From the NCBI GenBank assembly GCA_017552705.1, contig JAFZOY010000094.1, positions 21,286 to 85,285 of the forward strand: 64,000 nucleotides of DNA, in the 5' to 3' direction. The notes beneath the pieces are model-generated. The model saw nothing but the letters and a program-made list of their open reading frames with translations. It did not search any database and had not been told where the DNA came from. This document shows positions 42,245-58,249 of this stretch, one piece after another (position 1 is the first letter of the stretch; the number at the start of each line of letters is the position of its first letter). The stretch comes from Bacteroidales bacterium. GTDB taxonomy: Bacteria; Bacteroidota; Bacteroidia; Bacteroidales; UBA1715. A program made the position numbers and the translations under genes.

Positions 42245-42285
42245 GAAATCCCGAATCAAACACCTATTGATTCGGGATTTTTTGT
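42245..42285 (+). terminator. Intrinsic terminator after ddl
   Basis: GAAATCCCGAATCAAacacctaTTGATTCGGGATTTttttg: a 14-bp stem followed by a T-run. Confidence 0.9.
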
Positions 42286-42360
42286 TATGAAAAAAGCCAT
42301 ATCTTTGAAAAATAAAAGCTAAGGCACGGACATGTGCCACAATGGAAGAAACTAAAAGAT

Positions 42361-43896: not shown

Positions 43897-43960
43897 ATTC
43901 TTTGAGTAAAAAACTTGATTTCTCAATGAATTACCGTATTTTTGAAACAAAGAATTTGAT

Positions 43961-44818: not shown

Positions 44819-44819
44819 G

Positions 44820-44843
44820 ATGATAGTCTGCATTGCTGAAAAA
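44820..44843 (+). repeat. Left copy of the 24-bp direct repeat (relic topB start, putative attL core)
   Basis: atgatagtctgCattgctgaaaaa matches 56222-56245 at 23/24 positions. It encodes MIVCIAEK and then runs into an unrelated 21-codon tail. Similarity ends sharply after nt 24. Confidence 0.85.
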
Positions 44844-44952
44844 AGAAATTTGAGGTTTAAAATCGAAAATAGTATTATATTGTTATTTTTACCGAAACAA
44901 AAATTTTAACAAAACAGAAATAGAAAATTAATACATATTTGAGCTTTACGCT

Positions 44953-45091
44953 CTTATTCTCGGGCTGAAAAATCTGGTAAATTTTTATAGACGAGAGGAT
45001 AAGTAAGCGAGAGGTTCACGTCTCAAGGCGTGAGTTGTTTTCGTGCTTATTTATCGTCATCGGTTTACCAGAGCCTTCAGTTCTAAATAAG
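44953..45091 (+). other. ~139-nt imperfect long hairpin (candidate structured RNA leader/sRNA or element-end DNA hairpin)
   Basis: Nested helices: 44953-58/45086-91, 44962-69/45076-83, 44973-81/45064-72 (9 bp perfect), 44987-93/45055-60, 44999-45008/45045-54 and 45016-20/45029-33. There is no ORF. It ends 27 nt before the HTH ATG. Confidence 0.35.
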
Positions 45092-45117
45092 CAATAAAAC
45101 GGACGATTCACGCTTTT

Positions 45118-45330
45118 ATGATTTATATAGGACAGCACATAGAAAAAGAACTCCACAAGCAAAACAAAACAGTTACTTGGTTTGCCCGTCAGTTGGGGTG
45201 TAGCCGTACCAATGTGTATAAAATTTTTGCCAAGAAAGCGATAGACACCGATTCCCTCGTTCAGATTTCAAGGATTCTTACGTTTGATTTTTTCGCACTA
45301 TATACCGAGGAATTAAAAATTAAGAGTTAA
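45118..45330 (+). CDS. Small helix-turn-helix (XRE-like) DNA-binding protein
   Basis: 70 aa. 'TVTWFARQLGCSRTNVYKIFAKKAIDTDSLVQISRIL' is a classic HTH + recognition helix pattern common in small Bacteroidetes regulators. Confidence 0.75.
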   Translation: MIYIGQHIEKELHKQNKTVTWFARQLGCSRTNVYKIFAKKAIDTDSLVQISRILTFDFFALYTEELKIKS

Positions 45331-45377
45331 GAATTGTATGTATAACCTATGAGCCCCCCCCACATTAACAACAAAAA

Positions 45378-45434
45378 AAGGGCAAATTATTCGATATTTT
45401 ACACCATATAAGGGGCAAATTATCGAGTTATTTT
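45378..45434 (+). promoter_or_regulatory. Two direct repeats (candidate operator half-sites)
   Basis: aaGGGCAAATTATtcgatatttt (45378-45400) and aagGGGCAAATTATcgagttatttt (45410-45434). They share a perfect 11-nt core spaced 33 nt apart, between the HTH gene and the lipoprotein operon. Confidence 0.3.
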
Positions 45435-45497
45435 CGCCCTAATTTTACTTACAGCCAAATATTTAATCAAATTATTCGCTGTAATTATGTAAAAATT

Positions 45498-45537
45498 CTG
45501 TAGCCAAATGGTTTACATATCAACCTTTTGGCTACAG
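45498..45537. promoter_or_regulatory. Perfect 11-bp inverted repeat (hairpin/operator)
   Basis: CTGTAGCCAAA-18 nt-TTTGGCTACAG, 90 nt upstream of the lipoprotein operon ATG. No T-run follows, so it is not a canonical terminator. Confidence 0.4.
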
Positions 45538-45626
45538 TGTTCCATAAAGAAAAGCCTTGTTATTTATTATTTTTGGAAAATATGAATTTGTAATTTTTGA
45601 AAAATTATTTCACTTAAAATTGATAT

Positions 45627-46628
45627 ATGAAAACTAAATTTATTCTATGTGCCGCAATGGCTACACTTATAGTGGTATCGTGCGGAAGTTCTGAGAATCA
45701 AAGCGGAAGTTCTTCAAGTGAGGAATTGGTTGATGTTACGGAACAACAGAAACCCAAGTTGATGGTAGTTCCAAGTGACCAATTGCTGAATCAATTTAAT
45801 ATGTTGAAGCAAGAAAATGCACAAGGAAAAACGCTTTTGATTCGTGATTACAATGGTTATTTGCTTGCCGATGCCAATTCAAAATTCATTATTTCGTCAA
45901 TTCAAGATGCGTTTATCAAATTTGGATTTCCGTTGAACGATTTTGAACAAACTCTTAAATCAATCAACGACCAAGATATGATTGACGAAGTTGACGGAAT
46001 TAAAAAAGATGCAAAAACAATGTTGTTGACTACGGCAAAACCCGATGTTATACTTGAATTGGATTACAATCTTCGTGAAAATATGGAATCTCGAGGGGTT
46101 GACAAAATGTTGACTTACTCCATTCGTGCCATAGATGCGTTCAGCAACAAGGTGGTTGCCGCAATTCAAGAAGCCGACTATGGGAAAAACACTCCTGTGA
46201 ACAGCGCTGAAAAATTAATGGCTGATGCCTTGGACGTACAAGGAGCAAATTTTACAAAGCAAATAGGAAATTATTTCAACGATATTATTGACAATGGGCG
46301 TACGATTACCGTTCGTGTGACGATAGAAAACGATGCAAACTTAGCTATGTCGGACGAATGTTTGGACAGCGACACTTATACTGATTTTTTGATTGACTAT
46401 GTAAAAAAGAATGCCTATAAAGGAGCATATACGCTTACTCGTAACACCGAAACGGAATTATATTTCACGAATGTGCAAATTCCTACACTGAATGAGGACG
46501 GAACCCAGTTTAGTGCATACGATTTCGCTCGTGCGATGTCGAAAGCACTCAATAAAGGTTGTGGCATGAAATCAAAAAATAGGACCCAAGGTCTTGGCGA
46601 TGCGTTAATATCAATAAAAGGAATGTAG
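45627..46628 (+). CDS. Hypothetical lipoprotein 1 of 3
   Basis: 333 aa with a lipobox (LIVVSCGSS) and a Ser/Glu linker followed by a globular domain. No family assigned with confidence. Confidence 0.8.
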   Translation: MKTKFILCAAMATLIVVSCGSSENQSGSSSSEELVDVTEQQKPKLMVVPSDQLLNQFNMLKQENAQGKTLLIRDYNGYLLADANSKFIISSIQDAFIKFGFPLNDFEQTLKSINDQDMIDEVDGIKKDAKTMLLTTAKPDVILELDYNLRENMESRGVDKMLTYSIRAIDAFSNKVVAAIQEADYGKNTPVNSAEKLMADALDVQGANFTKQIGNYFNDIIDNGRTITVRVTIENDANLAMSDECLDSDTYTDFLIDYVKKNAYKGAYTLTRNTETELYFTNVQIPTLNEDGTQFSAYDFARAMSKALNKGCGMKSKNRTQGLGDALISIKGM

Positions 46629-46631
46629 AAT

Positions 46632-47816
46632 ATGAAAGGAAAAATATTTGTATTAGGTGTTTTGTTGTTTTGTGCTTGTTCTAATTCTGGACAAAACAAA
46701 AAAGGAGTTGTGTTTAACCCAAACAAAGGTAGCGACACAGAAATAAGTGATACGGAACGAGAACGTAAAATTGCTGAAAAACGTGCAAACTACATTCCGG
46801 GTGATGTAAAGGACTTGGTTGCCGATGCATACAAATTCGAGGGAAAGATAAAATTGACCATCTTTATTCCCGAAGACAACGATCTGTCGTTGAGTGACGC
46901 CAGAATGATAGAATCAAGAATGATCCAGATGGCGACTGCAAACGGTGTTGGTGGACTTGGGGGGAATCCTCGTTTTGTGCTTGCTCCAGTGATGACGGTT
47001 TTACAAAAAGATGTCACTACCACCGCTCCTGTAAAATATCTTATGAAGTATGATTTAACGTTGTATGTGGCAGATTTACTAACAGGAACTGTGTTCGGCT
47101 CATACAATGTACAAAAAACTGGCGTGGGAGAATCGGAACAACGTGCATGTGTGAATATGTTCAACGACTTGCCCCCCAAAGATGAGTCAATCCAACGTTT
47201 TTTGGAATCATCGCAGACAAAAATCGTGGAATTTTACAAACAAAATGGCAGTCAGTTCATAGCTGAGGCAAAAATGCTTGCTTCACAGAGAAAATACTCG
47301 CAGGCGTTGGCAATTTTGACTTCAATTCCTTCGATTGACAGTCTGCACTATGCGGAAGCGATGAAGTATTCCGACGAGATTTTTCCGAAATATTTGGAAC
47401 AGGAATGTTCCACGACCTTGGCTTTGATGAAGGCTTCGTTGGGTGGCAAGTCGCAGGAAGGTGGATTCAATCCCGAAGCAATGGGGTACTATGCCATGAT
47501 TCCAGAAGGAAAGTGCAAGGCCGAAGCCGATGCAGTATACAAAGAATACAAAGCAACGCTTTCGGAAGAGAAAAAACGTGCATGGGATAAGGAAGACCGC
47601 GAATGGCAAGCAAAAATGGCACAACAGAAGGCCGACAATGATTTTAGGACATTGCAGGAAGAGTTGAAAACCAAAATTGCAATATCGGCGAACAAATGTT
47701 TGCTCGACAAATACAAAAAAGATGCCGCCTACGACAAATTGCCGTGGATTCGTAAATGTATTCATTTAGGTAATTATGATCCTTTTGATGGTTGTAAGGC
47801 GGAAGAAGGTTGTTAA
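46632..47816 (+). CDS. Hypothetical lipoprotein 2 of 3
   Basis: 394 aa with a lipobox (LLFCACSNS), 3 nt after the previous stop. Has a helical/coiled C-terminal half and Cys pairs near the C-terminus. Confidence 0.8.
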   Translation: MKGKIFVLGVLLFCACSNSGQNKKGVVFNPNKGSDTEISDTERERKIAEKRANYIPGDVKDLVADAYKFEGKIKLTIFIPEDNDLSLSDARMIESRMIQMATANGVGGLGGNPRFVLAPVMTVLQKDVTTTAPVKYLMKYDLTLYVADLLTGTVFGSYNVQKTGVGESEQRACVNMFNDLPPKDESIQRFLESSQTKIVEFYKQNGSQFIAEAKMLASQRKYSQALAILTSIPSIDSLHYAEAMKYSDEIFPKYLEQECSTTLALMKASLGGKSQEGGFNPEAMGYYAMIPEGKCKAEADAVYKEYKATLSEEKKRAWDKEDREWQAKMAQQKADNDFRTLQEELKTKIAISANKCLLDKYKKDAAYDKLPWIRKCIHLGNYDPFDGCKAEEGC

Positions 47817-47832
47817 AACAAAAATCATATAT

Positions 47833-48576
47833 ATGGAATTATTAAATTGTAAATCTAAAATCTGGATTTTTATTCTGGCGATTTTTCTATGTGGTGCTTG
47901 TGATGATTATTCTACAAAAGTTAAAAAATGTATGAAAGAAAAATGGAAATCTCATTCTTATGGAGGATTTTTAGGTTTTGGACAAAAAAATGATACGCCC
48001 AAAGATATTGATGAAGCTCTTTACAAATATGATTTTGAAACCGCAAGGGCGTATTTACCTTGTTATGGTTCTTTAGATTATTTACTTTATAAGGAAAAAC
48101 TTATACAGATTAACAAAGCTGAGATTTCATATTTATTAAATCAAGGTGCTTTTGACAAAGCGAGAAATATTATTGAGGAATATGGTGACTATGGTGACTT
48201 GTATAGACAATACATTCTTCCCAAGTTAATCGAGAATAAAAAATATGATGAGGTATTTTTATATCTTTATAAGATAAGCATTCCTGTTCCTACTATTGCT
48301 AATTGTTATAGAGGAACTTATCATATCCATGACGATGATGAATATAATCAAGAAGTCGGAAAATATAATAGTCTTGTTGATATACTTGTAAATCAAGCTA
48401 TTGCCACAAATGATAGAGGTTTGGCAAAAAGAGCTTTATGTTCATATAAAGAGGATGGTGACTTTGTTAAATCATCCAAAACTGGTACAATCATATATAA
48501 AAAATCTCAAAATTATCTTAATGCTGTTCAAAAACTCAAGGCGGCAGGCTTTATTCCAAAGAATTATGACAAATAA
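47833..48576 (+). CDS. Hypothetical lipoprotein 3 of 3 (helical-repeat-like)
   Basis: Start set to ATG 47833 (MELLNCKSKIWIFILAIFLCGACDD, lipobox). 247 aa, AT-rich codons, TPR-like helical composition. Confidence 0.75.
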   Translation: MELLNCKSKIWIFILAIFLCGACDDYSTKVKKCMKEKWKSHSYGGFLGFGQKNDTPKDIDEALYKYDFETARAYLPCYGSLDYLLYKEKLIQINKAEISYLLNQGAFDKARNIIEEYGDYGDLYRQYILPKLIENKKYDEVFLYLYKISIPVPTIANCYRGTYHIHDDDEYNQEVGKYNSLVDILVNQAIATNDRGLAKRALCSYKEDGDFVKSSKTGTIIYKKSQNYLNAVQKLKAAGFIPKNYDK

Positions 48577-48617
48577 AAAAGACGCATTCAATTTTATAAC
48601 TGATATAACGCATAACC

Positions 48618-49553
48618 ATGAATCGGAAAAGACAGAAAACCATTACTCAAACAAGTATATTTGGTGAATATAAAAAGCCTGAGGATAGAGTTACTGCCGC
48701 GTTTTTACACATAATCCATATAGGCGGAAATCTTGTCATTCAAAGGCTGTTCGGAGATGTATTCGACATCCCTTCAAACGAGATTAGTGTTATACCACAA
48801 TCCTATCAAAAAGATTCAATCCCCGATGGAGAATTGTCATGTGAATGTAATTACCACATTTATATTGAAAGTAAAATTGTATGTAACACAATCAATGAGT
48901 CACAATTATCAAGTCATAAAAAATTATCAAACACAGCTGCGAATCAATATTTGATTTATTTGACTCCTGACGAAAATAAGCCTGACATTTTAGAGAAAGA
49001 AACTATAGAATGGATGAACTGGAATACTGTGATAAACAGACTACAAGGTATTGTTGCTGATGGTCAGTCGGATGTCTTATTGAAATATTTTATTGACCAA
49101 TTTGTCCTTTTAGTGGAGCATACGGTTTATGAAAAAGCGTATGCAATCCCGAAAGAACAAAGTGTGATTATTGTAGGTGGACGTTTCGGTGAAAAAGTGG
49201 CTCTAAATTATAATTTTTATGCATGTCAACCGAATAGAACATTTCGCCCTTCAAAATATATAGCATTTTATCATCAAAATAGGATTAAATATTTATTTGA
49301 AATTGTTTGTCAAAAGGAATCGGTTGATATTCAAAAAGAATCATGGGTTGATAAAAGCTATTTTGACAAGATAGAACCAAATTATCAGTCATGTCTCAGA
49401 AAATTTTTTCAGTTGAGTTTGGTTAAAACATTTTCACCTGAAATAAAAAATGATAAAACCGATAAGAATGGAAATCCTACCGCTTATGTGCAAGGTCAAA
49501 CTTATACGTCCTATAATAATATTATGAATGCAAGAACGACATCGGATTTGTAA
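48618..49553 (+). CDS. Uncharacterised protein, PD-(D/E)xK nuclease-like N-domain + extra C-domain (paralog A)
   Basis: 311 aa. Ordered motifs 'KPEDRVTAAFLH', 'SIPDGEL' and 'HIYIESK' fit E...PD...ExK. Paralogous to ORF 54339-55025 over ~190 aa. Confidence 0.7.
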   Translation: MNRKRQKTITQTSIFGEYKKPEDRVTAAFLHIIHIGGNLVIQRLFGDVFDIPSNEISVIPQSYQKDSIPDGELSCECNYHIYIESKIVCNTINESQLSSHKKLSNTAANQYLIYLTPDENKPDILEKETIEWMNWNTVINRLQGIVADGQSDVLLKYFIDQFVLLVEHTVYEKAYAIPKEQSVIIVGGRFGEKVALNYNFYACQPNRTFRPSKYIAFYHQNRIKYLFEIVCQKESVDIQKESWVDKSYFDKIEPNYQSCLRKFFQLSLVKTFSPEIKNDKTDKNGNPTAYVQGQTYTSYNNIMNARTTSDL

Positions 49554-49572
49554 CTAGTTCAAACATCTTGAT

Positions 49573-50895
49573 ATGATTCCTCAGGAAACAATAGATAAAA
49601 TCCTCAATATGACTCGTATAGAAGAAGTCATCGGAGATTTTGTGCCATTACGGAAAACTGGTGCGAACTATAAAGGCTGTTGCCCGTTTCACGACGAGAA
49701 AACGCCGTCGTTTGTGGTTTCACCGGCAAAAGGGTTGTTCAAATGTTTTGGCTGCGGAAAGGCGGGAAATGTCATTACATTTCTCAAAGAAAAGGAAAAA
49801 CTTTCTTATGCAGAGGCCATCAAGTATCTTGGCAACAAATACCATGTGGAAGTGGTTGAAACGGAACTTACCCCCGAGGAAAAAGAGAAAAGGGACGTTC
49901 GCGAAAGTCTTCAAATCGTCAACAAATTTGCCGCCGAGTGGTTTGAGAAAACGTTGTGGGAAAGCGAAGAGGGAAAATCCGTCGGCTTGGCGTATTTCAT
50001 GGAACGGGGCTTTACCGAAGAGGTGCTTCGGAAATTCCGTATTGGTTACTGTTTGCAGGAAAACAACGCATTTACAAACGCCGCCGAAGGCAATGGCTAC
50101 AAACTTGAATATCTGCAACGAGTTGGATTGACGTCTGTGAGCGAAAACGGCAAAACCGACAAATTCCAAGGGCGCGTTATCTTCCCCGTCACATCGCTTT
50201 CGGGGAATGTGGTGGGATTTGGCGGACGAGTTGTAACGCCTGCAAACGAACAAGTTGCCGGTGGTGCGAAGTATGTAAACTCGCCAAATTCCGAGATATA
50301 CGACAAGAGTTTTGTGCTCTATGGTTTGTCGCTTGCAAAAAACGAGATTGTCAAAAAAGACGAATGTATTCTGGTGGAAGGCTTCACCGACGTTCTTTCG
50401 TTGTATCAATCTGGAATACAGAATGTTGTAGCTTCGCTGGGAACGGCGTTGGTGCAAGGGCAAATCAATTTGATAAAACGATTCACCAAAAACATAGTGG
50501 TGATGTTCGATGGCGACGCGGCAGGAATTAAGGCGGCGATACGGGTAATCGACAATTGTCTCGAAAACGACATGAATGTCAGGGTAGTTCTGTTGCCCGA
50601 CAGCGCTGACTCCGACACGTTCACCCAACAGCACTCGTCACAAGAGATTGCGGATTACATTGACGAACACAAAACCGATTTCCTCACATTCAGGATTCGC
50701 CTTGCCGAGCACGAATGTGCGAACGACCCGATAAAGCGAGCTCAGTTTATCAATGCAATTACCGAAACCCTTGCAAAAATTCCGAATCTCATCACACGAA
50801 GCGTTTTCATTCAGGAATGTAGCAAACTACTTGATATTGACGTGCAGGCACTCAAGAATCAGATGGCGATAAATATGGATAACTCATTGCGATAA
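49573..50895 (+). CDS. dnaG: DnaG-type DNA primase lacking the C-terminal helicase-binding domain
   Basis: CHC2 zinc finger 'CCPFHDEKTPSFVVSPAKGLFKCFGCGKAGN' and Toprim 'ILVEGFTDVLSL'/'MFDGDAAGIKAA'. At 440 aa it ends where the E. coli DnaG CTD (about residue 434 onward) would begin. Confidence 0.85.
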   Translation: MIPQETIDKILNMTRIEEVIGDFVPLRKTGANYKGCCPFHDEKTPSFVVSPAKGLFKCFGCGKAGNVITFLKEKEKLSYAEAIKYLGNKYHVEVVETELTPEEKEKRDVRESLQIVNKFAAEWFEKTLWESEEGKSVGLAYFMERGFTEEVLRKFRIGYCLQENNAFTNAAEGNGYKLEYLQRVGLTSVSENGKTDKFQGRVIFPVTSLSGNVVGFGGRVVTPANEQVAGGAKYVNSPNSEIYDKSFVLYGLSLAKNEIVKKDECILVEGFTDVLSLYQSGIQNVVASLGTALVQGQINLIKRFTKNIVVMFDGDAAGIKAAIRVIDNCLENDMNVRVVLLPDSADSDTFTQQHSSQEIADYIDEHKTDFLTFRIRLAEHECANDPIKRAQFINAITETLAKIPNLITRSVFIQECSKLLDIDVQALKNQMAINMDNSLR

Positions 50896-50901
50896 ACTAT
50901 T

Positions 50902-52056
50902 ATGGATACTAAAAAATGGACCGATACCTATGGTGTATCATTTGAACAAATAGAAACAGGAGTGATTTTGTGTGGTGTGGCTAAAGATAGTCCGCTTCGC
51001 GGCACATCATTACAAGATTATGAGATTCCCGAAGGCGTAACAGAAATCGGTGAGCATGCGTTTGAAGGTTGTAATGGTTTAAACAGTATTTTAATACCAT
51101 CTTCAGTAACAAAAATCGGTAGTTGTGCATTTTGTGGTTGTGAATTTCTTCTTTCAACTATAAATGTTGTTCCCGAAGAATTTAAAAAGAATGAAGACTT
51201 GGCAGCTGATTATTCGTTAAGTTTTATTATCCCAAAATCTGTTAAGGAAATTGGAGATTGGGCGTTTAAAGGTTGCAAAGTTTTAAACTCAGTGATAATA
51301 TATCCGCCTACATATAGAATCGGAGAACATGCTTTTGAATCTTGTACTGCCTTAAAAAGTGTTACTTTTGTTGTATCTGGCTTTCCTATCGAAAATTATG
51401 GGTTGCAAATAGAAGATTATGCGTTTTATAATTGTTCTTTGAAAAAAGTCGTGTTACCATCAATGTCAACAAAAATAAAAGAACATTCCTTTGACAAAAA
51501 TGTTGCTGTAACACAGGAATGGAAAGATACCGACAACGTATTTTTTGTACAAGACGAAAAAGGGATAACACTTGTCAAAGCACCATTTTCCCTCGAATTC
51601 GACGAATATGGAGGAATACCCTTTGACGAATCAATTGATGAATATGAAATTCCCGAGGGTGTGACAAGAATTGAATATGATGCGTTTAGAAATTGTGAGA
51701 ATCTTACAAAGGTGGTTATACCAGATTCAGTGAAAGAAATCGGTGAATACGCATTTTCAGGGTGTATAAGCCTATCAAGTATTTCTATTCCACATTTAGT
51801 GACAGAAATTAAAGAATGTGTGTTTGGAAATTGCGAAGCGTTGGAAAATGTTATCATACCAAATTCTGTAAAAACAATTGCTTGCTATGCGTTTTGTGAT
51901 TGCAAAGCATTGTCAAGTGTGACTATCCCGGAATCGGTGAAAGAAATTGGTGAAAAAGCTTTTTGGGGGTGCAACTTGAAGTCGGTAACCTTGCCAAAAA
52001 CAACTGAAATCGAGGAAGATTCCTTTGACGAAGGTGTGGAAATAATCAGGGTGTAA
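50902..52056 (+). CDS. BspA-type leucine-rich repeat protein, no signal peptide
   Basis: 384 aa with repeats 'IPxSVxEIGxxAFxGCxxLxSIxIP'. Two modules each open with a 'YEIPEGVT.I' lead-in. The N-terminus (MDTKKWTDTYG) is not hydrophobic. Confidence 0.85.
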   Translation: MDTKKWTDTYGVSFEQIETGVILCGVAKDSPLRGTSLQDYEIPEGVTEIGEHAFEGCNGLNSILIPSSVTKIGSCAFCGCEFLLSTINVVPEEFKKNEDLAADYSLSFIIPKSVKEIGDWAFKGCKVLNSVIIYPPTYRIGEHAFESCTALKSVTFVVSGFPIENYGLQIEDYAFYNCSLKKVVLPSMSTKIKEHSFDKNVAVTQEWKDTDNVFFVQDEKGITLVKAPFSLEFDEYGGIPFDESIDEYEIPEGVTRIEYDAFRNCENLTKVVIPDSVKEIGEYAFSGCISLSSISIPHLVTEIKECVFGNCEALENVIIPNSVKTIACYAFCDCKALSSVTIPESVKEIGEKAFWGCNLKSVTLPKTTEIEEDSFDEGVEIIRV

Positions 52057-52403
52057 TTTTTCAGGAAAAGACGAATTTCCCCATATCCCCGTCCGTCAGA
52101 CCATTTGATAAGGAAAAAGAAGAGGCAGAAAGACGGAAAGCAAACGGTATTCAAGAGAATTCGATTATTGTCAAAAATGACGGTTTGCTATATTCCAAGT
52201 ACATTCTAATTCTTGACTACATCATAGAACTGATTTCAAATGGGAAAGTAATTGGTTTGGAGGAATTCGTTATTACAATTAAAAATAAATTGAGTGAAAT
52301 ATAATTATGGAAAGAAAAGACATATAACGAATTCGTAGATGTTGAAAAATTTAACGAATTGCAAAAGAAAAAATAATGTTTAATATTTAAAAATCAATAA
52401 GTT

Positions 52404-52970
52404 ATGGCGAATATAGTAGATGCAAGTTATTATATTGAAGGTAATGAAGAAACAATAGATCTGGTGTACAACGCTTTGACGAAAAACAAATCACAAGATG
52501 GAGTTTCTCTTGGTTGCATTCTTCGGGACTGTGGTATTGATATAGAAAAATTACATGGTGCTGAATGGGTTTTTTCTTATCATAGAATGAAACCGAATGT
52601 TGTGTACATTTCTACTGAATCACGTTGGTGGCCGTCTAATTTCTCAGAGATGCTTGAAGAACATTTTAAGGATTTACGTGTTTATTATCAAGTCTGTGAT
52701 ACAGAAAGTTGTTGCTTACCCGAAACCAATGATATTGAAGGAAAGTATTTTAAGAGATACATGTGTACTACTTATTCCAACCTCGATGATCGGCTGGGAA
52801 TAGGGTGCGAATCGTTTTCTACGTTAGAGGAAGTGTTTGTTTTTCTTAAAGAACACACAAATTTTATTTCCACAATGGAAGATGTGAGAAAATATAACGA
52901 CTTATATAAGGATAAAACTGCAAAAATAGTCATTGTAGATAAATGCTCAGTAGAAAATTTAAGTAAATAA
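52404..52970 (+). CDS. Hypothetical cytoplasmic protein (possibly DUF1281/YubB ferredoxin-like; weak)
   Basis: 188-aa ORF between the two LRR genes. 'YIEGNEETIDLVYNAL' and 'STESRWWPSNFSEMLEEHF' loosely recall Api92/YubB-like domains. From memory only. Confidence 0.6.
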   Translation: MANIVDASYYIEGNEETIDLVYNALTKNKSQDGVSLGCILRDCGIDIEKLHGAEWVFSYHRMKPNVVYISTESRWWPSNFSEMLEEHFKDLRVYYQVCDTESCCLPETNDIEGKYFKRYMCTTYSNLDDRLGIGCESFSTLEEVFVFLKEHTNFISTMEDVRKYNDLYKDKTAKIVIVDKCSVENLSK

Positions 52971-53012
52971 CTTTTGGCTACAAATAATTATTCAACTTTA
53001 GACAATTTAATT

Positions 53013-54314
53013 ATGGAACCTATACATTTTCAAGATGAATTCGGGGTGCTGTTTGAAGATGACGGAACAAGTGTAACATTACTTGTGGCCTCCAATAAGC
53101 TTATACGTGAATATGTAATACCCGATTGTGTTACAGTAATCAATCATTCTGCATTTAAGGGGTGTGATAAACTCACCAATGTAACAATTCCCGACTCGGT
53201 GACGGAAATCGGAGGTTGTGCATTCTCTGGTTGCAGAGGTCTGACTTCTATCATTATCCCCAACTCGGTGACAAAAATTGGAATGTGGGCATTCTCTGGT
53301 TGCAGGGGGCTGACTTCTATCGTTATCCCTAATTCGGTGACGGAAATTGGATGGTATGCATTTTCTGCTTGCCGTGGATTGACTTCTATCACCATTCCCG
53401 AATCCGTGACCGAAATGAGAGAATTCGCATTTTCTGGTTGCACGGGGCTTACTACAATCACCATTTCCTGTTCAAAAATTGGTTTAGCTGCTTTTACAGG
53501 TTGCAGTGGACTAACAGCTATCAACATTCTCAAATCTGTGACGGAAATTGATAATAGGGCGTTTGAGGAATGCGATAGCTTACAGAGCGTGCTAATTCCT
53601 TCATCAGTAACGAGAATCGGGAGTTGGGCATTTGCTGATTGCAAATCACTAACTAAAATTATCATTCCAAATTCAGTAACGGAAATTGAGAGTGGCGCAT
53701 TTTTTCGTTGTAAAAAACTAACTACCGTTATACTCCCTGATTCAATAAGAGAAATTGGAGGAAAAGTGTTTAAAGATTGTGAAGAATTGACAAACATATC
53801 TTTACCCAACTCTATTAAGAAAATCGGTGTCGGAGCGTTTAATAATTGCAAGAAACTTACACGTGTTGTCATACCCAAATCAATGACGAGGATTGAAGAC
53901 AGCTCTTTTGTAAACTGCACTGGGCTTACCGAAGTTTCTATTCCCGATTCGATTATAGAAATAGGAATAAACGCCTTTGGCGGTTGTAAAAAACTTACCC
54001 ATGTCGTCATACCAAATTCCATAACGAAAATTGAAGACATTTCTTTTGCCAACTGCACGGGACTTACGGAGATTTCAATCCCCGATTCGGTGACAGAAAT
54101 AGGAAACTGGGCGTTTAAATGGTGCGAAAGCCTTACACACATAACAATTCCCAACTCGGTGAAAAAAATTGGATATAGCGCATTTGCAGAATGTAAGAAC
54201 CTTACCACAATTTCAATTCCCGATTCGGTAACGGAAATAGACGAACGGGCGTTTGAAGGTTGTGAAAAGTTAGACCTTCCCGATTGGGTGAAGAAACTCT
54301 GTAAGAATAAATAA
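53013..54314 (+). CDS. BspA-type leucine-rich repeat protein, no signal peptide
   Basis: About 16 LRR_5-type 23-aa repeats (IPNSVTKIGMWAFSGCRGLTSIV...). ATG 53013 (MEPIHFQDEF) is preferred; TTG 52974 is the track alternative. No signal, TM or sorting domain seen. Confidence 0.85.
   Translation: MEPIHFQDEFGVLFEDDGTSVTLLVASNKLIREYVIPDCVTVINHSAFKGCDKLTNVTIPDSVTEIGGCAFSGCRGLTSIIIPNSVTKIGMWAFSGCRGLTSIVIPNSVTEIGWYAFSACRGLTSITIPESVTEMREFAFSGCTGLTTITISCSKIGLAAFTGCSGLTAINILKSVTEIDNRAFEECDSLQSVLIPSSVTRIGSWAFADCKSLTKIIIPNSVTEIESGAFFRCKKLTTVILPDSIREIGGKVFKDCEELTNISLPNSIKKIGVGAFNNCKKLTRVVIPKSMTRIEDSSFVNCTGLTEVSIPDSIIEIGINAFGGCKKLTHVVIPNSITKIEDISFANCTGLTEISIPDSVTEIGNWAFKWCESLTHITIPNSVKKIGYSAFAECKNLTTISIPDSVTEIDERAFEGCEKLDLPDWVKKLCKNK
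53187..53465 (+). repeat. Four near-identical 69-bp (23-aa) LRR units
   Basis: IPDSVTEIGGCAFSGCRGLTSII / IPNSVTKIGMWAFSGCRGLTSIV / IPNSVTEIGWYAFSACRGLTSIT / IPESVTEMREFAFSGCTGLTTIT. DNA-level identity between the units is visibly high. Confidence 0.8.
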
Positions 54315-54338
54315 TGTATAACTATAAAAAACAAAACC

Positions 54339-55025
54339 ATGCTGCTAACAAATATCTTTGGAAATTATGCAAAGCCGGAGGACAAAATTACCGCCGCTCT
54401 TCTGCATGTGCTACAAAAAGGTGGAAACCTTGTCGTACAAAAACTTTTTGGTGCTGCATTCAACCTTCCGTCGGATGTCCACAACGTGCTTGACCTCACA
54501 TATGAGCACTATCCGCTGATTCATATTCGGAGTACGGTCATTCCGCCGGAAATATTCAGAATGAAACAGGAAATCGAAGTTCTCAACCGACAAATAACCG
54601 ACTTCGTAAAAAAACAAGAGTACGAGCGTGCCGCACAACTGCGTTACAAAAGAAACGAATTTCAAAAAGAGGTTGAATTGTTTTTCCCAGGAGACAAATT
54701 CCTTAACGAAAGTAGGATATGCGAGAATCACCTTTACATAGAAAGCATACTTTCCTGTAACGCAATCGACGAGACACAATTAGCAGCAAACAAAAAACTG
54801 TCAAACCCGTCAGCAGGCAATCATCTGATATACCTGACTCCCGACCAAACGAACCCCGACATCCTGACAACCGAAAATGTGGCGTGGATGAGTTGGACTA
54901 CTGTGACAGCATGCCTACAAAGTCTCATAGACGATGGTTCGGCTAACAGTGAGCTGAAATACTATATCGAGCAGTTTGTGAATTTATGTTTGGATAGAGA
55001 AACTGTGAAGGTAGTAGTGAAATAA
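54339..55025 (+). CDS. Uncharacterised protein, paralog B of ORF 48618 with a UVR-motif insertion
   Basis: 228 aa. Shares N- and C-blocks with paralog A. A ~60-aa insert carries 'KKQEYERAAQLRYKRNEF' (UvrB/UvrC-type UVR motif). The ExK position reads IESI. Confidence 0.7.
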   Translation: MLLTNIFGNYAKPEDKITAALLHVLQKGGNLVVQKLFGAAFNLPSDVHNVLDLTYEHYPLIHIRSTVIPPEIFRMKQEIEVLNRQITDFVKKQEYERAAQLRYKRNEFQKEVELFFPGDKFLNESRICENHLYIESILSCNAIDETQLAANKKLSNPSAGNHLIYLTPDQTNPDILTTENVAWMSWTTVTACLQSLIDDGSANSELKYYIEQFVNLCLDRETVKVVVK

Positions 55026-55050
55026 TTCACAATGCATAATTAGTGAAGCT

Positions 55051-55080
55051 AAGGGATTTCCGCAAGGGAATCCCTTTTTT
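55051..55080 (+). terminator. Intrinsic terminator ending the nuclease-like/primase/LRR gene string
   Basis: AAGGGATTTCCgcaaGGGAATCCCTTtttt: an 11-bp stem (one G-U) with a GCAA tetraloop and a T-run. Confidence 0.9.
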
Positions 55081-55156
55081 CGTCTCTACATTGGTTATCT
55101 TTTAAGAAGTAACAAACAGAATCGTATCGCATGGTTGCAGAATCAAAAATAATCAC

Positions 55157-55164
55157 TATTTTTG
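55157..55164 (+). promoter_or_regulatory. Candidate -7 promoter box for the RhuM-like gene
   Basis: TATTTTTG (TAnnTTTG) lies 26 nt upstream of ATG 55190. Confidence 0.35.
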
Positions 55165-55189
55165 AGCAACCAATTGAAGAGTAGTGAAC

Positions 55190-56065
55190 ATGAAAAATGA
55201 AATTGATTCTTGCGCAAAAAGCGAAATAATCTTGTATCAACCCAACGAAACAGTGTCGTTGGAGGTGCGGTTAGACGAGGAAACCGTGTGGCTGACGCAA
55301 CAACAGATTGCGGAATTGTTTGGTGTGAACCAACCTGCAATATCCAAACATTTGCGTAATATATTCAACGAAGGTGAATTACAAGAAAAATCAGTTTATT
55401 CCATTTTGGAATATACTGCAAAAGATGGAAAGAAATACAAGACTCATTTTTATAATCTTGACGCAATATTATCTGTCGGCTATCGTGTCAATTCCCGAAA
55501 TGCCACATTGTTCCGCCAATGGGCAAATAAGGTTCTAAAAGAATACCTGTTGCGCGGATATTCGATAAACCAACGTTTTGAACGATTGGAACAACGTGTA
55601 ACCCAAACAGAAAACAAAATTGATTTCTTCGTCCGTACTTCTTTGCCACCAGTTGAAGGACTGATGCACGAAGGACAGATTTTTGACGCACGTGTTTGTG
55701 TGGAAGACCTTATAAAACAGGCAAAGCGAGAAGTTATTATGATTGACGGCTACGTTGACGCCGCAACATTTGAAATTCTTGACGTCCGGCAGAAAGGAGT
55801 TTCGGCAACGATTTACACGGAACGGATTGGTGAGTCTTTATTGAGAGTCAAGGAATTGCACGATTCGCAATATCCCGACAAAATAATCCGATTAGAAAAA
55901 TACGCAGAAAATTTCCACGACCGTTTTCTCATAATTGACGACGTGGTCTATCATTTCGGAGCAAGTTTCAAAGATTTGGGCAATCGCCTGTTTGCATTTA
56001 ACAAAATGGGATTGGATAAGAATCTGATTCTTTTGGCAGTGAAAGATAAATTTAAGAAACGGTAG
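55190..56065 (+). CDS. RhuM family (virulence-associated) protein with additional C-terminal domain
   Basis: 'VWLTQQQIAELFGVNQPAISKHLRNIFNEGEL...YNLDAILSVGYRVNSRNATLFRQWANKVLKEYLLRGY' is the RhuM core. The C-terminal part carries 'HDRFLIIDDVVYHFGASFKDLG'. Confidence 0.8.
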   Translation: MKNEIDSCAKSEIILYQPNETVSLEVRLDEETVWLTQQQIAELFGVNQPAISKHLRNIFNEGELQEKSVYSILEYTAKDGKKYKTHFYNLDAILSVGYRVNSRNATLFRQWANKVLKEYLLRGYSINQRFERLEQRVTQTENKIDFFVRTSLPPVEGLMHEGQIFDARVCVEDLIKQAKREVIMIDGYVDAATFEILDVRQKGVSATIYTERIGESLLRVKELHDSQYPDKIIRLEKYAENFHDRFLIIDDVVYHFGASFKDLGNRLFAFNKMGLDKNLILLAVKDKFKKR

Positions 56066-56190
56066 GTGTTTCGGGAGGCACAACATTACCTTATATTCAT
56101 CTAAAAACGTTGTTGTACGTACCTTACGGCACAGTCTGATTGTGCATTATGAATTATGCATTGTTAATGCCTATAACGCAGAAATTTGAT

Positions 56191-56198
56191 TACCTTTG
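56191..56198 (+). promoter_or_regulatory. Candidate -7 promoter box for topB
   Basis: TACCTTTG (TAnnTTTG) lies 24 nt upstream of ATG 56222, inside the right end of the putative island. Confidence 0.4.
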
Positions 56199-56221
56199 TA
56201 GAACGAAAATTATTTGTAATT

Positions 56222-56245
56222 ATGATAGTCTGTATTGCTGAAAAA
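56222..56245 (+). repeat. Right copy of the 24-bp direct repeat (true topB start, putative attR core)
   Basis: atgatagtctgTattgctgaaaaa matches 44820-44843 at 23/24 positions, in the same orientation. Confidence 0.85.
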
Positions 56246-58249
56246 CCGAGTGTTGCGAAAGATATTGCCCACGTTTTGGGGGCTAACACAAGCCATGACG
56301 GGTACTTGGAAGGCAACGGCTATCAGGTAACGTGGACGTTTGGTCACCTTTGCACATTGAAGGAACCTCACGACTACACTGATTTGTGGAAATCGTGGTC
56401 GCTTTCGCGATTGCCCATGATTCCTTCGCAATTTGGCATAAAGTTGATTGATGACAAGGGAATAGCCAAACAATTCCATACGATAGAAACGTTGATGAAG
56501 CATGCCGACAAGATTATAAATTGCGGTGATGCCGGTCAAGAAGGGGAACTGATTCAGCGGTGGGTGATGCAGAAAGCCGGAGCAAAGTGTCCCGTGGAAC
56601 GGCTTTGGATTTCCTCACTGACCGAAGATGCTATAAAAGACGGTTTTAATAACCTAAAACCTCAGGATAATTATCAATCGTTGTACGAGGCAGGCTTGGT
56701 ACGTGCGATTGGTGATTGGCTTCTGGGAATGAATGCCACACGACTCTATACGCTGAAATATGGACAAAACAAACAGGTTTTGTCTATTGGTCGGGTGCAA
56801 ACTCCCACATTGGCAATGATAGTCAATCGTCAGCAACAGATTGAGAATTTCACGCCTGAACAATATTGGGTGTTGTCAACGGTGTATCGTGAAACGACGT
56901 TTACGGCAACGTCGGGAAAATTTTCTTCGCAGGAAGAGGGACAAAAGATTTTGGAAGAGATACAAGACGGGTTGTTCACCGTGACCGACGTATCGGAGAA
57001 AAAAGGCACGGAAGCTCCGCCACGCTTGTTCGACTTGACTTCGTTGCAGGTGGAGTGTAACAAGAAATTCTCGTTTTCGGCTGACCAGACCTTACAGTTG
57101 ATTCAAAGTTTGTACGAAAAGAAATTTACGACCTATCCGCGTGTTGATACAACATATTTGAGCGACGATATTTATCCGAAATGTTCCAATATAATGGGAG
57201 GATTGGCTGGCGTGCCGTCATACCTGCCGCTGTTGGAACCGTTTAAGGGTAAAAGTCTACCCAAAAGCAAAAAAGTGTTCGATTCGTCAAAAGTGACCGA
57301 CCACCACGCAATTATTCCGACAGGCGTCACGCCTCAAGGCTTGTCACAAAACGAGGAGCGAGTGTTTGACCTTGTTGCGAAACGATTTATCGCAGTGTTT
57401 TATCCCGATTGTCAGTTTGCTACGACTACGGTTTTGGGCAAGGTTGGAGACTACGAATTCAAAGCGACGGGTAAACAGATTCTGAAACCAGGCTGGCGTG
57501 TCGTTTTTGGAAATGTTAGTCAAGATGACGAAGACAAGAAAGATGAGGAAAAAACGCTTCCGTCGTTTACCAAAGGTGAATCGGGACCACATAAGCCTGA
57601 ACTTGCCGAAAAATGGACGCAACCACCAAAACCTTATACCGAAGCGACTTTGCTGCGAGCTATGGAAACTGCGGGAAAAATGGTTGATGACGACGAATTG
57701 CGTGACGCGTTGAAAGAAAACGGTATCGGACGTCCTTCCACGCGTGCTGCGATTATTGAGACATTGTTCAAACGACGTTATATCATAAAAGACAAAAAGA
57801 ACCTGATAGCAACTCCGACGGGTGTGGAACTGATAAACCTTATTTATGAGGAATCGCTCAAAAGTGCCGAATTGACGGGAAAATGGGAAAAGAAACTGCG
57901 TGAGATAGAACAAAAGAAATATTCGGCAAAACAATTCCTCGATGAGTTGAAAGTAATGGTTTCGGAGATTGTCACTACTGTATTGCGTGACAACACCAAT
58001 CGTCGCGTGGCAATTACGGAAGAAGTGAAAAAAGAGAATGCCAAAAAGGAAAAGGGAGAAAAGAAACCGTCAAAACCCCGTCAGTCAAAGAAAAAAGAAG
58101 AAAAAGCAACTACTGCGTTAGTCGCTGACGATTCCATAATCGGTAAACCGTGTCCGACATGTGGAAAAGGGCAAATCATAAAAGGTAAGACGGCGTATGG
58201 CTGTTCGGAATGGAAATCAGGTTGTGCGTTCCGCTTACCGTTTGCTTAG
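56222..58249 (+). CDS. topB: DNA topoisomerase III (type IA)
   Basis: Toprim start 'MIVCIAEKPSVAKDIA', 'GDAGQEGELIQRW', active-site Tyr region 'TYPRVDTTYLS' and a C-terminal Zn-ribbon 'CPTCGKG..CSEWKSGC'. Start set to ATG 56222 (675 aa). Confidence 0.93.
   Translation: MIVCIAEKPSVAKDIAHVLGANTSHDGYLEGNGYQVTWTFGHLCTLKEPHDYTDLWKSWSLSRLPMIPSQFGIKLIDDKGIAKQFHTIETLMKHADKIINCGDAGQEGELIQRWVMQKAGAKCPVERLWISSLTEDAIKDGFNNLKPQDNYQSLYEAGLVRAIGDWLLGMNATRLYTLKYGQNKQVLSIGRVQTPTLAMIVNRQQQIENFTPEQYWVLSTVYRETTFTATSGKFSSQEEGQKILEEIQDGLFTVTDVSEKKGTEAPPRLFDLTSLQVECNKKFSFSADQTLQLIQSLYEKKFTTYPRVDTTYLSDDIYPKCSNIMGGLAGVPSYLPLLEPFKGKSLPKSKKVFDSSKVTDHHAIIPTGVTPQGLSQNEERVFDLVAKRFIAVFYPDCQFATTTVLGKVGDYEFKATGKQILKPGWRVVFGNVSQDDEDKKDEEKTLPSFTKGESGPHKPELAEKWTQPPKPYTEATLLRAMETAGKMVDDDELRDALKENGIGRPSTRAAIIETLFKRRYIIKDKKNLIATPTGVELINLIYEESLKSAELTGKWEKKLREIEQKKYSAKQFLDELKVMVSEIVTTVLRDNTNRRVAITEEVKKENAKKEKGEKKPSKPRQSKKKEEKATTALVADDSIIGKPCPTCGKGQIIKGKTAYGCSEWKSGCAFRLPFA

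Follow-up and report, generated by a model that had tools for sequence, protein, structure and literature searches.

A central question raised by this locus is how an 11.4-kb block of accessory genes came to separate a HAD-family hydrolase gene from topB, with the first eight codons of topB repeated at both of its ends. The window analyzed here is a 64,000-nucleotide stretch of a contig from a rumen Bacteroidales species. The original prediction was that an ancestral HAD-topB junction had been split by a site-specific insertion into the 5' end of topB, and that the 24-bp repeat was its core. The features needed to evaluate this idea are as follows.

43961-44818, + strand: HAD-family hydrolase, 285 aa (Pfam HAD, NCBIfam HAD-IB), the left flanking core gene
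44820-44843, + strand: left 24-mer, with C at position 12; codons 1-8 of the resident topB, left stranded ahead of the insert
44820-44909, + strand: junk ORF, 29 codons long, in which MIVCIAEK is followed by 21 unrelated codons
44844-56221, + strand: insert, 11,378 bp, missing from the conspecific contig L105
56182-56221, + strand: stretch of ~40 bp that precedes topB and includes a TAnnTTTG -7 box (TACCTTTG, 56191-56198)
56222-56245, + strand: right 24-mer, with T at position 12; start of the functional topB
56222-58249, + strand: topoisomerase III, 675 aa (Toprim and Topoisom_bac domains, Pfam E=4.5e-122)

A strain-specific insertion in an ancestral operon

The repeat that brackets the block was recovered with the coordinates and sequences originally given. 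The left copy (ATGATAGTCTGCATTGCTGAAAAA) begins 1 nt after the HAD stop codon (TAA, 44816-44818), and the right copy (ATGATAGTCTGTATTGCTGAAAAA) lies in the same orientation with 23/24 identity to it. Since the bases bordering the two copies are unlike (G and T before, A and C after), the repeat is exactly 24 nt long. Allowing up to 3 mismatches, these two copies are the only matches in 64 kb, so the 24-mer is not dispersed within the window, and 100 dinucleotide shuffles of the window yielded none (mean 0.00, maximum 0). The left copy opens the junk ORF, whose stop codon (44907-44909) is in frame with the listed ORF 44739-44909.

The empty site anticipated for this arrangement is found in L105, whose flanks are 97.7-98.1% identical to the window and in which the HAD stop codon is followed by 1 nt, a single 24-mer of the C type and an uninterrupted topB. 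L105 aligns with positions 35548-44843 and 56222-64000, and its single 24-mer is common to both alignments. The window is the empty site plus 11,378 bp and a 24-bp duplication. HAD also directly abuts topB in four more distant relatives (L108, L113, L012 and L013), and the two genes are translationally coupled in relatives. The tight HAD-topB junction is present at all five empty sites, over a range of 72-95% topB nucleotide identity, which marks the empty state as ancestral, and these comparisons show that the ancestral state was a HAD-topB operon with stop and start codons overlapping or spaced by 1 nt. The part of the prediction that concerned the split junction is borne out, and the block is a real insertion, specific to one clone and absent from its sister strain L105.

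An assembly artefact is ruled out by independent contigs: the left junction is crossed by seven, which come from different samples, and the right junction by at least four, all with at least 99.96% identity to the window, and a single 29-kb scaffold spans both. The left junction is known from one occupied clone, and its joint falls within an A-run (GAAAAA/AGAAA, with the slash marking the joint).

Could the polarity be reversed, such that the island was ancestral in the species and L105 lost it through recombination between the 24-mers? A 24-bp direct repeat is able to support a precise deletion and L105 does carry a single copy, but the distribution of the tight junction among the five empty sites and the restriction of the occupied state to a single clone make such a loss very improbable. 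Moreover, the L105 topB is 4-5% off the window when its flanks differ by ~1%, so that L105 is not the window allele minus the island, and a deletion would still leave the first origin of the duplication unexplained.

A mosaic cargo

The insert is compositionally atypical, as a check of its GC content (37.5% versus 38.8-42.7% elsewhere) and tetranucleotide distance (0.18 versus 0.08-0.11 in controls) confirmed. Its features, all on the + strand, are listed below.

44941-45090, + strand: conserved, strongly structured non-coding element that precedes a small HTH gene and may be a leader or small RNA
45118-45330, + strand: Cro/C1-type HTH protein, 70 aa (Pfam HTH_26, weak)
45627-48576, + strand: left module, three predicted lipoproteins with lipobox-type N-termini (next three lines)
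45627-46628, + strand: DUF6175 protein, predicted lipoprotein (Pfam DUF6175 E=2e-67)
46632-47816, + strand: 394-aa protein, predicted lipoprotein
47776/47833-48576, + strand: 247-266-aa protein, predicted lipoprotein
48618-49553, + strand: 311-aa protein with an N-terminal Cas4/RecB-like PD-(D/E)xK nuclease domain
49573-50895, + strand: truncated DnaG-type primase, 440 aa (TIGR01391 425 bits, plus the Pfam domain set)
50902-55025, + strand: LRR module (Pfam LRR_5; next four lines)
50902-52056, + strand: BspA-type LRR protein
52404-52970, + strand: 188-aa protein
52974-54314, + strand: BspA-type LRR protein
54339-55025, + strand: 228-aa degenerate paralog of the 311-aa nuclease-domain protein
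55184-56065, + strand: RhuM-family protein (Pfam Virulence_RhuM; PADLOC PDC-S05 E=7e-115)

Comparison with relatives shows that three modules make up the insert as a mosaic: one is the lipoprotein operon, another combines short DnaG, nuclease and LRR genes, and the third is a RhuM defence gene with the promoter stretch. These modules occupy other chromosomal loci in relatives. The lipoprotein operon is found at two such loci in L114-L118, with 80-87% amino-acid identity. The LRR module has 96.9% nucleotide identity to a 4.1-kb segment at another locus of another species (L099, 12653-16737), whereas the dnaG beside it is only 78% identical to L099. RhuM genes adjoin topB in L092, L093, L096 and L097, and adjoin HAD in L106, L107 and L112; given its match to PDC-S05, the RhuM protein is a candidate single-gene phage-defence system. 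The 311-aa protein itself had no match in Pfam. Its family (390 representatives) has invariant residues D70, E84, K86 and Q96, and the family profile matches PDB 4ic1 (E=2.5e-5).

The original prediction would have been undermined if the island dnaG were the only primase gene. By its sequence, the island dnaG is evidently a truncated second copy, a paralog rather than the housekeeping gene: the zinc ribbon, catalytic core and Toprim domain are kept, ~225 C-terminal residues are missing, and identity to the nearest full-length DnaGs (~666 aa) is no more than 68-70%. A short form (442 aa) and a long one (668 aa) occur together in the same samples. A 667-aa DnaG (MBR5433082.1) shares an accession block with the island proteins (MBR5434348-54), and a full-length dnaG is very probably present elsewhere in the same MAG. 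In relatives with an empty site, dnaG is necessarily elsewhere.

No recombinase found in the insert

Also in agreement with the original prediction, the insert lacks a recognizable integrase, transposase or relaxase. The annotated insert ORFs were compared with Pfam, NCBIfam, PHROGs and PADLOC, each library covering most but not all of them. The Pfam search also took in seven antisense ORFs, and it covered the left-junction region and the three larger intergenic regions (the other two being 156-158 bp long) in all six frames. No integrase, transposase, relaxase or excisionase, nor any remnant of one, was found in the ORFs, antisense ORFs or three larger intergenic regions, and the sole nuclease-like protein of the insert is the Cas4/RecB-like one. 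Searches of Pfam, NCBIfam and PHROGs revealed no relaxase, T4SS, capsid or terminase genes in the insert, and comparison with plasmids, phages and viral contigs revealed no similarity except for a short stretch of dnaG. Thus, of the features of an integrative element with its own recombinase, the boundary repeats and a one-copy empty site are present, and a recombinase and transfer or virion genes were not found.

One possibility is that the insert is nevertheless an element that integrates site-specifically, with the first 24 nt of topB as its attachment core. It would be without an integrase, whether by loss or from the outset, and would be moved in trans in the manner of a CIME. The recombinase of a related element would act on it, and the promoter and 5' end of the target would be restored, as for SXT in prfC. 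The exact direct repeats at the ends, the single copy at the conspecific empty site, the atypical composition and the derivation of the sequence upstream of topB from the insert are all in keeping with this scenario. There are also precedents, as CIMEs by definition keep attL and attR without integration and transfer genes (PMC6323972) and SXT/R391 elements integrate in the 5' end of prfC (PMC5812530). We regard this scenario as possible but doubtful, as the insert has no integrase, excisionase, relaxase or phage gene in the sequence scanned and the modules of its cargo belong, in relatives, to ordinary chromosomal neighbourhoods. In addition, no partner ICE or IME using this att site was found in the collections scanned for exact 24-mer matches and within 10-kb flanks. 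Plasmids and phages likewise yielded nothing related. The 24-mer had no match in viral contigs and matched only topB starts in metagenome contigs, and the scans of both yielded no attP-type junction. Among 78 other Bacteroidales topB loci and five related metagenome contigs, there was no case of a topB start with a second copy of itself upstream, over upstream sequence that reached at most 10 kb and far less at several loci.

The ends of the insert had also been thought to carry a second motif pair resembling arm-type recombinase sites. AGAAATTTGA and CGAAAAT are present at the positions given earlier, but the resemblance is at chance level: local alignment of the 100 nt inside each insert end scored 20, which was equalled or exceeded in 418 of 2000 dinucleotide shuffles and in 79 of 1266 other windows of the sequence.

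A related proposal is that the 24-mer is the attachment core of an integrase-less element that targets topB codons 1-8, carries a replacement promoter, and is moved either by insert-encoded machinery (the truncated DnaG with the Cas4-like PD-(D/E)xK nuclease) or by a recombinase elsewhere in the genome. We consider this unlikely.

Two allele lineages at the junctions

The left 24-mer is identical to the single 24-mer of L105, and the T variant at position 12 accompanies the promoter stretch in L092, L093, L094, L096 and L097. Left copies are all C, as in the empty site, and right copies are all T, as in the promoter-topB genes. A crossover 3' of position 12 would make this difference compatible with an element moved in trans. 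It weighs against a transposition-type insertion with a 24-bp target-site duplication, since the two copies match different allele lineages and a true target duplication would be identical. Direct repeats do lie exactly at the insert boundaries, but the insert ends have no terminal inverted repeats and no transposase was found in the insert ORFs, antisense ORFs and three larger intergenic regions, which leaves transposition scarcely credible. A 24-bp target duplication is, moreover, longer than usual for transposons.

The stretch of ~40 bp upstream of topB is conserved in every island-bearing relative, including those in which the more distal sequence is different. From its Bacteroidetes-type -7 box, we infer that it is a new topB promoter brought by the insert, as was originally proposed.

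The DNA to the right of the repeat resembles a donor rather than the resident. Compared with L105, the 1.2 kb of left flank that end at the joint have 1-7 differences per 200 nt (averaging ~1-2%), most of topB diverges by 4-5%, and divergence is ~0.5-1% beyond 58.3-58.9 kb. This outlines a tract of donor type (4-5% versus ~1% in the flanks) that falls off after ~58.3 kb. The first 150 nt of topB are nearest to those of L096, another island-bearing species (2.7%, versus 5.3% from conspecific L105), and RhuM with the promoter stretch is 96.5% identical to L096. The topB genes of L097, L092 and L094 differ from the window by 5-13% over the first 600 nt and by 12-44% (mostly 25-36%) over the remainder. 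Judged by these divergence profiles, topB is a mosaic and was probably imported together with the insert, to ~58.3 kb. Such donor-like DNA is not predicted by simple conservative integration.

A second type of insert at the same locus (L106, L107 and L112) joins directly after TAAGA, without the 24-mer, and this different left joint also tells against an element moved in trans. In these three contigs, which represent a third strain type, HAD diverges by 8-21% over its last 400 nt, a sign of a crossover within the gene. On the reading favored below, the HAD/topB locus is a recombination hot spot, and the block is a strain-specific accessory islet within it.

A possible import anchored in topB

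We tentatively favor, at slightly less than even confidence, an import by recombination anchored in topB, in which a non-homologous left joint stranded the first 24 nt of the resident gene. The donor DNA would have come from a related lineage whose native arrangement was already promoter-topB. Homologous recombination would have taken place on its right side, within or just past topB, and on its left side a non-homologous end would have been attached illegitimately behind nt 24 of the resident gene, through homology-facilitated illegitimate recombination or an equivalent one-sided event. The left 24-mer would then be the displaced 5' end of the resident topB rather than a recombinase core, the right 24-mer would be the topB start of the donor, and no element-encoded recombinase would be necessary. 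Islets, once formed, may be swapped among strains and species via ordinary homologous recombination in the flanking genes.

The empty sites and the C/T allele pattern favor import anchored in topB, as do the imported tract beyond the repeat, the closeness of the topB 5' 150 nt to L096, the mosaic topB, the second insert type with its crossover in HAD, the lack of a detected recombinase in the insert and the presence of the modules at other loci in relatives. Homology-facilitated illegitimate recombination, in which incoming DNA is homologous at one end and joined illegitimately at the other, has been described (PMC3240628), and T6SS and Rhs loci contain displaced gene ends that have been attributed to it (PMC5361080). 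Other observations weigh against such an import. A neat 24-bp duplication from the start codon, with promoter and 5' coding sequence restored, is also expected of an integrative element that targets a 5' end; the higher topB divergence could reflect general recombination at topB instead of co-import with the insert; the left junction comes from one occupied clone only; and no donor sequence left of 44844 was found. The A-run at the left joint agrees with the 3-10 bp of microhomology expected there but is uninformative. In addition, most target-duplicating recombinants in conjugation experiments were single crossovers of circular molecules, and few clones were truly one-sided (PMC3240628).

Of the original site-specific reading, then, insertion into the 5' end of topB stands, together with the empty site. 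Action of a recombinase on the 24-bp core is unsupported, given that no recombinase was found, the arm motifs are at chance, another left joint occurs and the DNA right of the repeat looks imported.

Relation to known systems

The proposed import resembles homology-facilitated illegitimate recombination, and the displaced gene ends of Rhs, CDI and T6SS effector loci, in having a homology anchor on one side and a non-homologous joint on the other (PMC3240628, PMC5361080). In those cases a fragment of the resident gene is stranded with no dedicated recombinase, a pattern that the donor-like topB tract and the stranded 24 nt fit. The geometry differs, however, as the anchor there is usually the 5' part of the gene with orphan 3' ends downstream, whereas at this locus the body of topB would serve as the anchor and a 24-nt 5' end would be orphaned upstream of it. 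We know of no demonstration of this process in Bacteroidales.

SXT/R391 ICEs likewise occupy the 5' extremity of a housekeeping gene between short flanking direct repeats (PMC5812530). In both cases, sequence upstream of the target gene is replaced by that of the incoming DNA. Hochhut and Waldor reportedly found in 1999 that SXT replaces the promoter of prfC. Unlike the islet, SXT has its own tyrosine integrase, excisionase and conjugation machinery. CIMEs share with the islet att-like direct repeats that bound an island without integration and transfer genes (PMC6323972), although the att function of the islet repeats is putative. CIMEs are recognized through a cognate ICE or IME that shares their att sites, a partner not found for the islet in the collections scanned, and the islet cargo shows no sign of ICE ancestry.

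Defence and surface-protein islets at hot spots offer a further parallel, with accessory cargo between core genes, occupancy and content that vary between close strains, and exchange through flanking genes. The cargo here (RhuM/PDC-S05, PD-(D/E)xK nuclease, short primase, BspA-type LRR and lipoprotein genes) is of this type. Hot-spot islets are usually in intergenic gaps, whereas here the gap is 1 nt inside an operon, so the insert must bring a promoter for the downstream gene, and a coding-sequence duplication is left behind.

The locus provides a clean natural example of occupied, empty and alternatively occupied alleles in one species. It shows accessory DNA wedged into a translationally coupled operon without inactivation of the downstream essential-type gene, which is spared because the incoming DNA carries its own promoter and gene start. 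It also urges caution, because the repeat copies come from different allele lineages and a neighbouring gene was apparently co-imported: short direct repeats bordering islands are not always att sites. No new class of element is called for unless mobility of the 24-mer-bounded unit is demonstrated. HAD/topB can be added as a variable locus in rumen Bacteroidales that holds candidate defence genes (RhuM/PDC-S05, and short DnaG with the PD-(D/E)xK nuclease) and surface LRR proteins.

A structured element at the left end

The 70-aa HTH protein next to the left junction belongs to the PHROG category of transcriptional regulators and matches PADLOC PDC-M69A (E=5e-7). The non-coding element upstream of its gene has no match in Rfam. 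It has an MFE of -59 kcal/mol (z=-5.5) and is 77-82% conserved at another locus in L114, with five compensatory pairs.

The insertion is strain-variable and lies at the start of topB

The insert (window positions 44844-56221) separates HAD, a hydrolase gene, from topB, the topoisomerase III gene, and is bounded by two direct repeats of the first eight codons of topB. Both same-strand copies lie where the original prediction placed them and are identical at 23 of 24 positions:

44820-44843 (+), left 24-mer, ATGATAGTCTGCATTGCTGAAAAA
56222-56245 (+), right 24-mer, ATGATAGTCTGTATTGCTGAAAAA

The left copy starts one base after the HAD stop codon (TAA, 44816-44818) and runs on for 21 unrelated codons, to 44909, whereas the right copy is the start of a 675-aa Toprim/Topoisom_bac protein. 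No further match with three or fewer mismatches was found in the window or in 100 dinucleotide shuffles, and we rejected the idea of a dispersed repeat because the 24-mer has two copies in the window and is otherwise restricted to topB starts. An assembly artefact was ruled out, since the left junction is crossed by seven contigs from different samples and the right junction by at least four, and one 29-kb scaffold spans both. Each of these crossing contigs is at least 99.96% identical to the window, so only one clone is known to carry the island.

Empty sites were found in several relatives. In a scan of topB relatives limited to one genome per species, the two loci closest by topB (L012 and L013, 78-79% amino-acid identity) lack the block and otherwise keep the gene order of the entire neighbourhood: proS, two hypothetical genes, aminotransferase, ddl, comM, HAD, topB, two DUF6089 genes, nadK, dnaA and mlaD. 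Their HAD-topB junctions are TAG-T-ATG in L012 and an overlap of stop and start, ATGA, in L013. A conspecific contig, L105, was found through near-identical HAD proteins and aligns with window positions 35548-44843 (97.7% identity) and 56222-64000 (98.1%). It has one 24-mer, common to the left and right alignments, at the junction ...GGAATAAG[ATGATAGTCTGCATTGCTGAAAAA]CCAAGTG..., and adding 11,378 bp and a 24-bp duplication to this empty site gives the window. Two loci with more distant HAD genes (L108, 87%; L113, 85%) are likewise empty. These sites favour the insertion that had been predicted at the HAD/topB junction. The opposite polarity, in which the island is ancestral and was lost in L105, is poorly supported beside them and very improbable. 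Transposition with a 24-bp target duplication is also poorly supported, and we give it the least credence of the readings considered.

Gene content of the islet

Every gene of the insert is on the + strand:

left end of the insert (+), structured non-coding element, followed by a gene for a 70-aa HTH protein
after the HTH gene (+), three predicted lipoproteins (DUF6175, 394 aa and roughly 250 aa)
48618-49553 (+), 311-aa protein, predicted Cas4/RecB-like PD-(D/E)xK nuclease
49573-50895 (+), DnaG-type primase, 440 aa
after the primase (+), two BspA-type LRR proteins with a 188-aa protein between them
54339-55025 (+), 228-aa degenerate paralog of the 311-aa nuclease protein
55184-56065 (+), RhuM-family protein, PADLOC candidate defence system PDC-S05 (E=7e-115)

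The insert is compositionally atypical, with a GC content of 37.5% versus 38.8-42.7% in equal-sized windows elsewhere in the window and a tetranucleotide distance of 0.18 versus 0.08-0.11 for controls. As an accessory islet that varies between strains and sits at a chromosomal hot spot, it is of a known kind. What is unusual is its position inside a translationally coupled operon, as a result of which it must bring a promoter for topB, and the coding-sequence scar that it left behind. TACCTTTG, upstream of topB, is a candidate promoter box brought by the insert.

The 311-aa protein is predicted to be a Cas4/RecB-like PD-(D/E)xK nuclease because D70, E84, K86 and Q96 are invariant among 390 representatives of its family and the family profile matched PDB sequence 4ic1 (E=2.5e-5), which we take to be the Cas4 protein SSO0001. 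Its structure as predicted by AlphaFold from the single sequence was of too low confidence for use (pLDDT 35.6). The 311-aa protein has an intact D..ExK..Q nuclease motif; its 228-aa paralog has ESI in place of ESK and an extra inserted segment, and is therefore probably inactive.

The island primase matches TIGR01391 over the full length of the DnaG core model (425 bits) and lacks about 225 C-terminal residues. It is closest to a further pair of short forms (95% and 76% identity), followed by DnaGs of roughly 666 aa (68-70%). A 429-aa DnaG of another MAG shares the 90%-identity cluster of the island primase. The block would be indispensable if this were the only primase gene, and the findings point the other way. 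Strains with the empty site must carry dnaG elsewhere, and the MAG of the window very probably also has a full-length dnaG, since a 667-aa DNA primase with 68% identity (MBR5433082.1) shares the accession block of the window proteins (MBR5434348 to MBR5434354). In one related organism, short and full-length DnaG occur on different contigs in the same three samples. The truncated DnaG (49573-50895) always adjoins a PD-(D/E)xK nuclease-like gene and LRR genes, in the window and in the locus L099 of a different organism, and its PADLOC matches include DnaG-like components of reverse-transcriptase defence systems (RT_UG29, E=2e-48). It may serve in defence or as an accessory replication module.

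Upstream of the HTH gene, the stretch 44941-45090 (+) is a strongly structured non-coding element (MFE -59 kcal/mol, z=-5.5; none of 200 shuffles reaches this stability). It recurs, conserved, in another species at another locus (L114, 8298-8490) with five compensatory base-pair changes, and could be a leader or small RNA. An Rfam scan of the island, this element included, returned no family.

Recombinase genes and att-like sites

The original prediction saw no integrase, transposase or relaxase in the block, and this holds in the parts scanned. The annotated ORFs and the seven antisense ORFs longer than 100 aa yielded neither these genes nor excisionase or phage structural genes. None turned up either when the left-junction region was translated in all six frames, together with the three larger intergenic regions (the two smaller ones measure 156-158 bp). 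A hidden recombinase was rejected on the basis of these antisense and six-frame results, and the profile of the 311-aa family gave a Cas4-like nuclease instead. The insert does not belong to the ICE, IME or prophage families, since the test for the recombinase that defines them was negative. The motif pair AGAAATTTGA...CGAAAAT, proposed as arm-type recombinase sites, was not significant when its local alignment was compared with shuffles and genomic windows.

The exact 24-mer occurred in seven metagenome contigs, each time as a topB start, and was absent from viral contigs; no attP-like or second attL-like junction was seen in these scans. When 78 other Bacteroidales loci were searched for a duplicate of their own first 24 nt of topB (at most four mismatches, at most 10 kb upstream), none had one, and the topB start was discarded as a general Bacteroidales integration hot spot. 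A phage or plasmid origin was likewise rejected, as a blastn search of plasmids and phages with 7.6 kb of island sequence returned only a dnaG stretch of roughly 100 nt, and a protein scan of viral contigs with the island found nothing beyond it. It is improbable that the insert is a true integrase-less element that targets the topB start.

A 17-nt inverted repeat (ATTCACAATGCATAATT / AATTATGCATTGTTAAT, 94% complementary) brackets RhuM at 55025-55041 and 56152-56168, with additional half-copies at 56139-56158. This ACAATGCAT-type repeat was dropped as a cassette recombination site because the motif is missing at the equivalent boundaries in four relatives (L093, L094, L097 and L114). A repeat of roughly 77 bp between cassettes in L093, L094 and L096 was also discarded as a site, being the shared C-terminal coding end of ORF6N/RhuM-type genes.

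Allele lineages, mosaic modules and the mode of insertion

The two 24-mer copies belong to different allele lineages. Position 12 is C in all left copies and in the conspecific empty site, and T in all right copies and in the promoter-linked topB of L092, L093, L094, L096 and L097. Divergence from L105 is asymmetric: there are 1-7 differences per 200 nt (about 1-2% on average) in the last 1.2 kb of left flank up to the joint, 8-12 (local range 3-18) across most of topB, and 0-3 beyond 58.3-58.9 kb. The donor-like tract thus seems to continue past the right repeat, and the first 150 nt of topB differ by 2.7% from L096 versus 5.3% from L105. In L097, L092 and L094, the first ~600 nt of topB (56222-56820) are 5-13% from the window and the remainder 12-44%, mostly 25-36%: topB is mosaic between species, its 5' part having moved horizontally along with the upstream cassette. 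RhuM and the stretch upstream of topB are 96.5% identical to L096 and 92.7% to L097, against only about 92% and 78.5% for the topB genes of these two.

The insert itself is a mosaic. RhuM with the stretch upstream of topB is one of its modules, and the others occur in other contexts in relatives. Relatives of the lipoprotein operon (80-87% amino-acid identity) occupy two other chromosomal contexts: in L114/L115 they lie between guaB and gap, and in L116-L118 they adjoin an AAA ATPase gene. The short-dnaG and LRR module lies in yet another context in L099. A 4.1-kb segment comprising the two BspA-type LRR genes, the 188-aa gene and most of the 228-aa gene (window 50907-54986, L099 12653-16737) is 96.9% identical, whereas the adjoining dnaG is only 78% identical, which points to recent inter-species transfer of LRR surface-protein genes.

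In a third strain type (L106, L107 and L112), the left flank matches the window at about 98% identity. The insert is another one, which starts right after TAAGA without the 24-mer and has another RhuM as its first gene. The position of the left joint thus varies at this locus. In these strains, HAD is 8-21% diverged over its last 400 nt, which places a crossover inside HAD. Taken together, these results show that the locus exchanges its islands by homologous recombination in the flanking genes.

Of the site-specific insertion originally predicted, the insertion into the topB start therefore stands, and a simple integrase-type event is disfavoured by the failure to find a recombinase, the chance-level arms, the restriction of the 24-mer to topB starts, the lack of upstream duplicates at the 78 other loci, the allele lineages, the donor-like tract, the topB mosaic and the third strain type. 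Our best explanation, held tentatively, is import from a related lineage with a homologous right crossover and a non-homologous left joint. Donor DNA in which the promoter-topB arrangement was already native would have entered an L105-like chromosome, the right crossover would have occurred in or just after topB, and the left end would have been joined non-homologously to nt 24 of the resident topB, whose first 24 nt would thereby be left stranded after the HAD stop codon. The analysis shows the insertion polymorphism, the C/T pattern of the two repeats, the asymmetric divergence, the mosaicism and, in the parts scanned, the lack of a recombinase; in what order things happened, and that the left joint was illegitimate, we infer. 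The proposed event shares its geometry with homology-facilitated illegitimate recombination, in which one end is homologous and the other illegitimate, usually with 3-10 bp of microhomology (PMC3240628). That process has been used to explain displaced gene ends in T6SS and Rhs loci (PMC5361080), to which the stranded 24 nt are a parallel.

The main rival is that an att-flanked element was moved in trans, which would liken the insert to a CIME (PMC6323972) and its position at the topB start to that of SXT in the 5' end of prfC (PMC5812530). Such an element would account just as well for the neat 24-bp repeat and for the fact that promoter and gene start are restored. It needs extra assumptions for the allele lineages, donor-like tract, topB mosaic and third strain type, and no cognate recombinase-bearing element was found in metagenome, viral, plasmid and phage scans; we consider it doubtful.

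Other variable features of the region

RhuM-family genes (PDC-S05) are present at every variable form of the locus (window, L093, L096, L097, L092, L106, L107 and L112). They also adjoin the DUF6175 operon in L114 and lie upstream of comM in L109, and RhuM looks like a marker of recombination-prone spots in the genus. In L106, direct repeats of roughly 65 bp (…ACATTTCCATCATTAATTT…CCCTATTTTTACCA; about 7545-7625 and 8645-8725) flank RhuM, and each contains a TATTTTTA box like that at window 44885-44892.

Within comM, divergence from L105 is raised at 42900-43400 (about 5% versus 1-2% around it), and this patch is probably a separate small recombination tract. A second boundary that varies between strains, beside a tRNA gene, is at 35548: synteny with L105 ends here too, 173 bp past the 3' end of tRNA-Arg (35721-35795, -), with mnmE/DUF285 in L105 and SpoIID and a deoxynucleoside kinase in the window. 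Since only about 4.7 kb separate dnaA (60974-62431, -) from the right end of the insert, the variable locus is probably close to the replication origin.
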